Origin: Escherichia coli
GTDB taxonomy: Bacteria; Pseudomonadota; Gammaproteobacteria; Enterobacterales; Enterobacteriaceae
Strand: one strand, 5' to 3'
Assembly (NCBI RefSeq): GCF_003334335.1
Contig: NZ_QOWQ01000184.1
Length of the DNA stretch: 497 nt
The notes beneath the pieces were generated by a model. That model had not been told where the DNA came from. It saw only the letters and a list, made by a program, of their open reading frames with translations, and did not search any database. Below, piece after piece: positions 1 through 497 of this stretch (the first letter of the stretch is position 1; each line of letters starts with the position of its first letter). Made by a program: the position numbers and the translations under genes.

Positions 1-41
1 TCGGTATAACCGAGTAACTGGCGGGTCGTAAACAATCCCAT
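1..41 (-). CDS. E: Major capsid protein, lambda gpE family (5' end only; gene continues beyond window start)
   Basis: Minus-strand ATG at 41-39 followed by an open frame to the window edge, encoding MGLFTTRQLLGYT. This resembles the lambda gpE N-terminus MSMYTTAQLLAAN (M, TT, QLL shared). An AAGGA Shine-Dalgarno sits 8 nt upstream. The start lies 57 nt downstream of the D-like stop, close to the lambda D-E spacing as I remember it. Only 13 codons are visible, so the call rests on synteny plus a short N-terminal match. Confidence 0.75.
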   Translation of the reverse strand, partial: MGLFTTRQLLGYT

Positions 42-49
42 AAATCAGT

Positions 50-54
50 TCCTT
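50..54 (-). promoter_or_regulatory. Shine-Dalgarno (AAGGA) for the E-like major capsid gene
   Basis: Minus-strand sequence AAAGGA-ACTGATTT-ATG, an 8-nt spacer to the start at 41. Confidence 0.6.
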
Positions 55-69
55 TCATTCAGAAATCAG

Positions 70-91
70 TCAGGCCAACGCGGTGGCCTGA
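70..91 (-). other. Intergenic GC-rich stem-loop between the D-like and E-like genes (possible mRNA stability or attenuator hairpin)
   Basis: Perfect inverted repeat: on the + strand tcaggcca (70-77) and tggcctga (84-91) flank a 6-nt loop acgcgg (78-83). On the mRNA (minus) strand this is UCAGGCCA-CCGCGU-UGGCCUGA, an 8-bp stem with six G/C pairs, starting 8 nt after the D stop codon. It is followed by CUGAUUUCUGA, not a clean U-tract. Confidence 0.55.
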
Positions 92-98
92 TAACGTG

Positions 99-446
99 TT
101 ACGGCAGCGCCGCGTGACTCAGGGCTGTGCCGACAAAGGCGTTGGCCTTTTTGTGTTCATCCACACTTTCAGGCCAGCGGATTGCCTCCGTCGCAAAGGT
201 CCCCGACTTGTAATACGTCAGCACCGTCTCTGTGCCTTCAAGCGGCAGTACCAGTATGCCAGCCGCACTACCGGCTTTCTGTCCGTCCCAGACCACCAGT
301 TTCCCGCTGGCTTCATCCAGCATCAGGGGCGTCAGTGCCGGTGTTGCCTGAGAAATCCCGCTGCTGCCTGTGGCGGTATGAGCCGGATCATTACCGGCAA
401 AAATACGTACTTCTGCACGTTGTTCAGTGATGGTTTTCGTTACCAT
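99..446 (-). CDS. D: Head decoration protein, lambda gpD family (complete, 115 aa)
   Basis: Minus-strand ORF from the six-frame track: ATG at 446-444, TAA stop at 101-99. The product aligns by eye with lambda gpD as I recall it, including NDPAHTAT, TPLMLD, KLVxWDG, GIL, YKSGTF, WPE and AFxGTA motifs; roughly half of aligned positions are identical. Length (115 aa against 110 in lambda) and position immediately upstream of a gpE-like start fit the lambda gene order. GAGG Shine-Dalgarno lies 10 nt upstream of the ATG. Confidence 0.9.
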   Translation of the reverse strand: MVTKTITEQRAEVRIFAGNDPAHTATGSSGISQATPALTPLMLDEASGKLVVWDGQKAGSAAGILVLPLEGTETVLTYYKSGTFATEAIRWPESVDEHKKANAFVGTALSHAALP

Positions 447-497
447 ATTGTAAAAACCTCATATTGATGGTCAGCACTGACTTCATGGCATGGCCAT
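440..497 (-). CDS. Probable 3' end of the upstream head gene (position of lambda C/Nu3 protease/scaffold); partial, frame uncertain
   Basis: On the minus strand two frames are open from the window edge into the D start region. One ends with TAA at 442-440, overlapping the D ATG as ATGGTAA; the other ends at a TGA about 20 nt inside D. The third frame is closed by TGA stops at 485-483, 476-474 and 461-459. Lambda gene order predicts a scaffold/protease gene ending just before D. About 19 codons are visible and the correct frame cannot be chosen from the sequence alone; the coordinates given are for the frame ending at 440. Confidence 0.25.
   Translation of the reverse strand, partial: WPCHEVSADHQYEVFTIW
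457..460 (-). promoter_or_regulatory. Shine-Dalgarno (GAGG) for the D-like gene
   Basis: Minus-strand sequence GAGG-TTTTTACAAT-ATG, a 10-nt spacer to the start at 446. The site sits inside or at the very end of the upstream ORF. Confidence 0.55.

Follow-up and report, generated by a model that had tools for sequence, protein, structure and literature searches.

The 497-nt stretch of Escherichia coli DNA analysed here (the window, in what follows) corresponds to the junction between shp (D) and gene 7 (E) in a lambdoid prophage of the phage 21 type; it belongs to the late operon and is transcribed from the minus strand. Listed in the direction of transcription, its features are:

483..497, minus strand: 3′ end of the C/Nu3-like protease-scaffold gene (phage 21 gp5/gp6), with a TGA stop at 485..483, mapped from the M81255 annotation.
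457..462, minus strand: shp RBS, ATGAGG, a putative RBS in M81255 (L001 1536-1541).
99..446, minus strand: ORF of shp, the gene for the D-like head decoration protein of 115 aa, with a TAA stop at 101..99.
71..90, minus strand: GC-rich stem-loop CAGGCCA-CCGCGU-UGGCCUG, terminator-like, its position conserved in every D-E spacer examined.
63..70, minus strand: octamer copy 1, ACUGAUUU, which flanks the hairpin on the 3′ side and fills, in degenerate form, the slot of the terminator U-tract.
50..55, minus strand: Shine-Dalgarno (SD) sequence of the E-like gene, AAAGGA with the core AGGA, annotated as RBS in M81255 and OL657228.
42..49, minus strand: octamer copy 2, ACUGAUUU, which makes up the complete 8-nt SD-AUG spacer.
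1..41, minus strand: 5′ end of the gene for the E-like major capsid protein (gene 7 in phage 21), with its ATG at 41..39.

At the DNA level, the window showed 100% identity to Escherichia phage PhiR5_1 and 96.4% to phage 21. The D-like protein of 115 aa was 100% identical to PhiR5_1 protein D and 93% identical to phage 21 SHP, and it matched the PDB entry 1TD3, ‘Head decoration protein’, which is the phage 21 SHP structure (E=2e-67), as well as PHROG 49, head decoration. The ORF of the E-like gene opens with MGLFTTRQLLGYT and this start was homologous to phage 21 gp7 and to Gifsy-1 E. In the annotation of phage 21, shp encodes the head decoration protein, a lambda D homologue, and gene 7 the major capsid protein, a lambda E homologue, with a putative RBS annotated for each of them. 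A 140-nt query located the junction in 1,867 of the 5,426 complete E. coli genomes, that is, in about a third. The region under study is an ordinary intergenic region that had been previously sequenced and annotated.

Some other elements were seen in the surroundings of the spacer. Upstream of shp and outside the window, M81255 describes in the gene 6 scaffold (L001 980-1374) three repeats called ‘Tri box’, each about 105-115 nt long and of unknown function. Antisense to the D-like gene, on the plus strand of the window between 127 and 150, there were three overlapping terminator-like sites with stems at 129-146, 135-150 and 127-142, each of them followed by a T-rich tail, and the sense (minus) strand contained another terminator-like site inside D, at 420..405. 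Terminator-like sites numbered 5 compared to 0.4 expected in shuffles, a count that is inflated by the overlapping calls. Also, a 245-nt stretch of the Aeromonas phage AP1 record (MT713136.1 250152-250396, L373) matched the 5′ end of gene 7 of phage 21 at 99.6% identity. This record corresponds to a jumbo phage of 254 kb, the match begins 1 base before the ATG and the stretch carries no annotation, and it is probably an assembly chimera or a contamination.

The D-E spacer spans 57 nt (98..42, minus strand) and the mRNA reads, from the D stop to the E start, UAA, CACGUUAU, the stem-loop, ACUGAUUU, CUGAAUGAAAGGA, ACUGAUUU and AUG. The octamer AAATCAGT is found exactly, as originally predicted, at 42-49 and 63-70 of the plus strand, and it corresponds on the minus strand to ACUGAUUU in the mRNA and to ACTGATTT in the DNA. 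The proposed anatomy, that is, a D-like gene followed by a hairpin, an SD and an E-like start, with one copy after the hairpin and the other one between the SD and the ATG, was correct in all its positions. The spacer had also been described as AT-rich along its 57 nt; its length and the composition of its 29-nt tail (31% GC) agreed with this description and the hairpin half, which is GC-rich, did not. The two copies are 21 nt apart from start to start, and the repeat extends to 11 nt if one mismatch is allowed (39-49 versus 60-70, ACTGATTT-ATG versus ACTGATTT-CTG). An origin by tandem or segmental duplication was considered and rejected, since the likeness ends at 11 nt and the remainder of the two 21-nt units is unrelated.

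How often such a repeat would arise by chance was estimated with dinucleotide-preserving shuffles of the spacer, of the tail and of the whole window. Direct repeats of 8 nt or more appeared in 0.9% of the shuffled 57-nt spacers (P = 0.009) and in 1.9% of the shuffled 29-nt tails (P = 0.019), and matches to the octamer with up to 1 mismatch numbered 3 versus 0.28 expected. When the entire 497-nt window was shuffled, 18% of the sequences contained one or more exact 8-mer pairs within 30 nt (P about 0.18), and the mean number of exact 8-mer pairs anywhere in a shuffled window was 2.1. The real window has a second exact 8-mer pair, TTCATCCA, at 156-163 and 312-319. The repeat is thus unusual locally and within chance given the search space of the scan.

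Each copy belongs to a different structural element of the spacer. Copy 1 follows a hairpin whose stem has 7 bp (CAGGCCA/UGGCCUG) and whose loop has 6 nt; pairing of U91 with A70, the first A of copy 1, can lengthen the stem by one pair. The hairpin had a pairing probability of about 1 in the ensemble fold and, taken as a terminator stem, it has 8 base pairs, of which 5 are GC, and a loop of 6 nt, within the limits of a stem of at least 5 bp and a loop of 3-8 nt. A GC-rich hairpin was present in 20 of 20 representative spacers, with unrelated stem sequences and, in every case, with a T-rich tail, an SD and an A/T-rich spacer after it; in N15 the equivalent hairpin carries the annotation of a putative rho-independent terminator. 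The tail of the window, CTGATTTCTG, passes a lenient rule of five T in eight, but the bases proximal to the stem are ACUGA, and the U content after the stem is 1 in the first 5 nt and 5 in 11 nt, compared to the T6-T8 that relatives carry there. As a U-tract, the copy 1 tail ACUGAUUUCUG is poor, and the word ‘terminator’ denotes here a position rather than an activity.

Insertion sequences gave an independent view of this position. In some E. coli 21-type prophages (L337 2575-3305; L299/L300), IS200C, a member of the IS200/IS605 family, lies inside copy 1, after ACTGATT, with GGCCTGACTGATT joined to GTGCACAG at one junction and GGAGGATATTTATT joined to TTCTGAATGAAAGGAACTGATTTATG at the other; its right end brings a new hairpin and a U-rich tail directly upstream of the E RBS. 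All of about 20 other distinct IS200C sites (IMG/VR; L338-L368) were located directly after a hairpin plus T-tract, and a bias of the IS200/IS605 family to such targets has been reported in a preprint on insertion sequence niches (10.1101/2025.07.22.666184). Because IS200C enters copy 1 and, at the other sites examined, inserts after a hairpin and T-tract, copy 1 can be placed in the U-tract slot of a terminator-like hairpin.

With respect to alternative pairings of the hairpin, its 3′ arm (mRNA GCGUUGGCCU, window 72-81) is complementary over 10 nt to AGGCCAACGC in D (window 139-148), which lies 57 nt upstream. This complementarity is perfect only in the loop variant of the window (G to T) and has 1 mismatch in phage 21, and the local hairpin dominates the predicted ensemble despite it.

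Copy 2 is part of the initiation region of the E gene, in which AAGGA (54..50) is followed by an 8-nt spacer and by the ATG (41..39) that opens a conserved ORF, a distance within the 5-10 nt used as anti-SD criterion. The copy is A/U-rich, with 2 G/C in 8 nt. Copy 2 is the SD-AUG spacer, at optimal spacing, of a gene that needs a very high translation rate. In addition, the mRNA segment AAGGAACUGAUU is complementary, save for 2 central bases, to GAUCACCUCCUU, which we take to be the 3′ end of the 16S rRNA; other lineages lack this complementarity.

A coincidence of reading frame is also found in this region. The D stop (101..99) and the E AUG (41..39) share one frame with the UGAs of the two octamers (68..66 and 47..45), and the final UGA is placed one codon ahead of the E AUG. 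It could be argued that selection for in-frame UGA stops made the two octamers alike, either as a back-up against D-E read-through fusions or for re-initiation 3 nt before the AUG, given that the 57-nt spacer and the 21-nt spacing produce, in a single frame, TAA, 9 codons, UGA, 6 codons and UGA UUU AUG. We find this hardly credible, because it would account for only 3 of the 8 repeated bases, other lineages have no in-frame stop just upstream of the AUG (for example lambda GGGAUUUUUUUAUG, Gifsy-1 and L224), and the strong SD, at its optimal spacing, is enough for E to initiate independently.

We compared sequence conservation of the two copies and of the neighbouring segments inside the phage-21 cluster. 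Among 78 IMG/VR loci retrieved by D-protein similarity there were 10 phage-21-type spacer haplotypes, all of them with both octamers, and 120 of 120 loci read ACTGATTT/ACTGATTT when the retrieval pattern left both octamers as N8. A 46-nt block was exact in 1,596 of 1,870 E. coli records. Four one-mismatch variants were sampled: three of them altered the G between the copies (CTGAAT to CTTAAT) and one altered copy 1 (ACTGATTG). The latter, the only copy 1 variant seen, comes from E. coli O157:H7 F3113 (NZ_CP038374.1 1949107-1949232; L369), in a prophage whose annotation lists the major capsid gene as a truncated pseudogene, which fits with a relaxed constraint after decay.

Nucleotide variation was measured on 55 unique haplotypes, ungapped and retrieved without reference to the spacer. 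No site was variable in copy 1 (0/8), in copy 2 (0/8) or in the 8 nt before the hairpin (0/8), and the SD block showed one variable site out of 13. In the same haplotypes, 6 of the 20 hairpin sites varied, all in the loop and upper stem, and third codon positions were variable at 37%; no variable site was present in the first 26 nt of E. A separate ungapped set, filtered of a few mosaic or indel sequences, gave similar figures. The comparison of 0 out of 16 repeat sites with 37% of third codon positions yields a naive P of 5e-4, and would indicate either that the octamer bases are constrained or that they are located in a block of low diversity. Purifying selection specific to the repeat bases was not found in the 55 haplotypes: since the initiation region from -29 to +26 was equally invariant throughout, the conservation is not specific to the repeat. 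We attribute the invariance to the initiation region as a whole, an interpretation of the alignments with which a motif-specific constraint would remain compatible.

The hairpin behaves differently within the cluster. In phage 21 it is a perfect 20-nt palindrome, CAGGCCACCGCGGTGGCCTG (L001 1908-1927; window 71-90), whose centre is the sole hypervariable part of the spacer, with 6-7 variable sites. The commonest variants of the centre, CCGCGG and CCATGG, differ at two bases with the palindrome preserved, a pattern suggestive of a templated (quasi-palindrome) mutation or a symmetry constraint acting at the DNA level.

More distant spacers were obtained from IMG/VR scans with the D proteins of Gifsy-1 and of an E. 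coli intermediate (L224), together with a species-level genome scan. The search of genome contigs for D homologues gave only 17 loci, mostly of the lambda/N15 type, and the informative intermediates came from IMG/VR. In these relatives D is 65-73% identical to that of the window and E starts with MGLFTT or MNLFTT. The layout was kept in all of them, that is, a hairpin, a T-rich tail, (CTGAA..)AAGGA, an A/T-rich spacer and the ATG, and the AAGGA block itself was kept in most. The octamer pair was present in none of the diverged homologous spacers (L328, L329/L317, L224, L230/L236, L322/L325, Gifsy-1 and Trabulsiella). The slots homologous to the two copies are occupied in the diverged relatives by differing, non-repeated sequences:

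L328: copy 1 slot, TCTTATTT; copy 2 slot, CCTGATT.
L329: copy 1 slot, TTCTGTTT; copy 2 slot, TATTATTC.
L317: copy 1 slot, TTCTGTTT; copy 2 slot, CACGTTTC.
L224, which retains CTGAATTAAAGGAAC: copy 1 slot, TGTTTTTT; copy 2 slot, CCATATTT.
L230: copy 1 slot, TTGTGTTT; copy 2 slot, AATAAATT.
Gifsy-1: copy 1 slot, TCGTATTT; copy 2 slot, CACCATTT.

In the case of L224, the pair is missing even though the SD block CTGAAT.AAAGGAAC is retained. The copies are therefore invariant only within the near-identical phage-21 cluster, and the comparison of D-E spacers from related prophages that had been proposed as a check found the repeat absent from homologous spacers. The possibility that the repeat arose by chance, which the original prediction had left open, is favoured by this absence together with the window-level P.

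The two slots of the relatives, even if not repeated, resemble each other at 5-6 of 8 positions (CT.ATT, ...TTT). Because those of L328 and L329 were already this similar, about two substitutions would suffice to produce a perfect repeat. A variant of this history would be that a templated event (short-patch gene conversion, slipped mispairing or template switching) made the copies identical and that the outcome was selectively neutral. Ancestral slots already 5-6/8 alike, as inferred from L328 and L329, copies lying 21 nt apart on the same strand beside a palindrome, and the symmetric double changes of the hairpin centre (CCGCGG to CCATGG), which suggest local templated mutation, are all consistent with such an event. 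We nevertheless regard it as unlikely: the identical tract is only 8 nt long (11 with 1 mismatch), a pair of point substitutions accounts for it just as well, and the cluster sets contained no intermediate haplotypes. Moreover, this proposal concerns origin only, and its functional prediction is the same as that of the coincidental repeat that we favour.

Similar pairs were detected in other lineages. The spacer of the lambda/N15 clade consists of GCCGCnnnnGCGGC followed by T7-8, A, YGGGA, an A/T-rich stretch and the ATG. In lambda (L083 689-743) and in an Erwinia endophytica prophage (L091), TTTTTTTA (an 8-nt pair in lambda) occurs twice, flanking the SD GGGA, and in the Erwinia prophage even TTTTTTTATG does; one copy is the U-tract of the terminator and the other one lies just before the E start codon, in an analogue of the octamer pair. 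L328 contains ATTTAAA twice. The longest direct repeats ranged from 4 to 8 nt across the 20 representative spacers, with the 21 type at the top of this range and not isolated from the rest. Judging from these spacers, look-alike pairs formed by the post-hairpin tail and the pre-AUG spacer appear to be recurrent by-products of two U-rich slots.

If the octamer were a recognition motif or a processing site, as had been suggested, it might recur at other places of the phage genome. The phage 21 genome (42.9 kb) contains ACTGATTT four times on the plus strand, where 0.6-0.8 copies are expected, and not once on the minus strand. Two of the four are the pair under study, and the extra two are located inside cII and antisense to a small ORF; the whole-genome count thus placed none at another RBS or late-gene start of phage 21. 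This outcome of the proposed frequency check, like the absence of the pair from diverged homologous spacers, argues against the motif. A scan with Rfam 15 (E up to 10) returned 3 sub-threshold matches, far under the gathering score and none of them over 42-98. A consistent structure for the octamer tail was not found either: minimum free energy and ensemble folds were robust for the hairpin alone, the pairings of the tail were weak and differed between the two folds, and the region had a z-score of -0.72. Our literature search for the D-E intergenic hairpin of lambda or phage 21, or for a terminator or processing there, yielded no relevant paper.

These results bear on the reading that the ACUGAUUU copies are lineage-specific cis-acting RNA sites, for an RNase E-type cleavage or for an RNA-binding factor, whose role would be to split the D message from that of E or to adjust the translation of E. 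Neither copy varies among 55-104 unique haplotypes or among the 120 of 120 matches to the pattern that left them free, the local shuffles gave a P of about 0.01, the CUGAUU core is kept in L328 at the position of copy 2, and both copies sit in an A/U-rich tail beside a stable hairpin, which is a typical context of endonucleolytic processing. RNase E cuts at a loose consensus, RN/WUU, that GA/UUU fits. Even so, we consider this reading quite improbable. The RNase E consensus is too loose and carries almost no information, the pair is conserved in no diverged homologous spacer, the other late-gene starts of phage 21 show no enrichment of the motif, no Rfam family matches it, and the invariance covers the whole region from -29 to +26 rather than the repeat. 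In addition, a cleavage at copy 2 would detach the SD from the AUG of the capsid protein that is needed in the largest amounts. A more specific form of it, according to which a pair of RNA processing or factor sites of the phage-21 lineage sets the D:E ratio or the stability of each half of the message, and the unchanged sequence of both copies in over 1,500 E. coli prophages reflects that function, seems to us very improbable. If the motif reading were true, it would provide a small, lineage-specific case of post-transcriptional tuning of capsid protein stoichiometry.

The explanation that best accounts for these data, to which we assign a probability of roughly 0.8, is that the two ACUGAUUU copies, A/U-rich segments with different functions, became identical in this lineage by coincidence, the repeat having no separate function. 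The absence of the pair in diverged homologues, the lack of recurrence of the motif and the chance level of 0.18 lead to this reading. Copy 1 would be a U-rich tail, in degenerate form, behind the conserved terminator-like stem-loop that lies downstream of D, and copy 2 the 8-nt spacer that goes from the SD AAGGA to the AUG of the major capsid gene. Since both segments are constrained to U-rich ends (..AUUU), only about 4-5 more bases need to coincide. From what is generally known of lambdoid late operons, the Q-modified polymerase would read through the hairpin, which in turn may act as a weak terminator and/or as a barrier to 3′ exonucleases that stabilises the upstream message. The A/U-rich tail, with its presumably low structure, would then give ribosomes access to a strong, independently initiating E start. 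Taken together, the comparative evidence indicates that the octamer repeat at the capsid gene start is most likely a lineage-specific coincidence.

This result drops one candidate motif. At the same time, it outlines a fixed layout for lambdoid D-E spacers, in which a terminator-like hairpin is followed by a U-rich tail, an SD, an A/U-rich spacer and the AUG. As two U-rich slots readily grow alike, short ‘repeats’ that flank the RBS in this type of spacer need comparative support before they are read as motifs.

Among the closest known systems is the shp-gene 7 junction of phage 21 itself (M81255, OL657228), which is the same locus, differs from the window by 1 base of the spacer, in the hairpin loop, and carries both octamers; in these two records only the RBS is annotated there, and the hairpin and the repeat lack annotation. 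With respect to a standard SD site, the initiation region of E is ordinary, because an A/U-rich spacer of 8 nt is usual for highly expressed genes, and its only oddity is the identity with the post-hairpin octamer. As for the known targets of the IS200/IS605 family, the element treats copy 1 as a U-tract, an observation that is silent on any function of the repeat. Compared to an intrinsic terminator, the hairpin shares the GC-rich stem of 7-8 bp, the 6-nt loop, the T-containing tail and its detection by a consensus scan, and it is positionally homologous to the canonical elements of lambda, N15, L224 and L329, made of a hairpin and T7-8. It departs from them in its weak U-tract, its termination efficiency is probably low, and, unlike a standard terminator, it is located inside an operon that, as general knowledge of these phages has it, is read through under Q antitermination. 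Finally, the D-E region of lambda presents the same layout as the window, that is, a stop, a GC hairpin, U7, an SD (GGGA), U7 and the AUG, and where lambda has a clean U7 tract, the 21 type has the tail ACUGAUUUCUG and the SD AAGGA.
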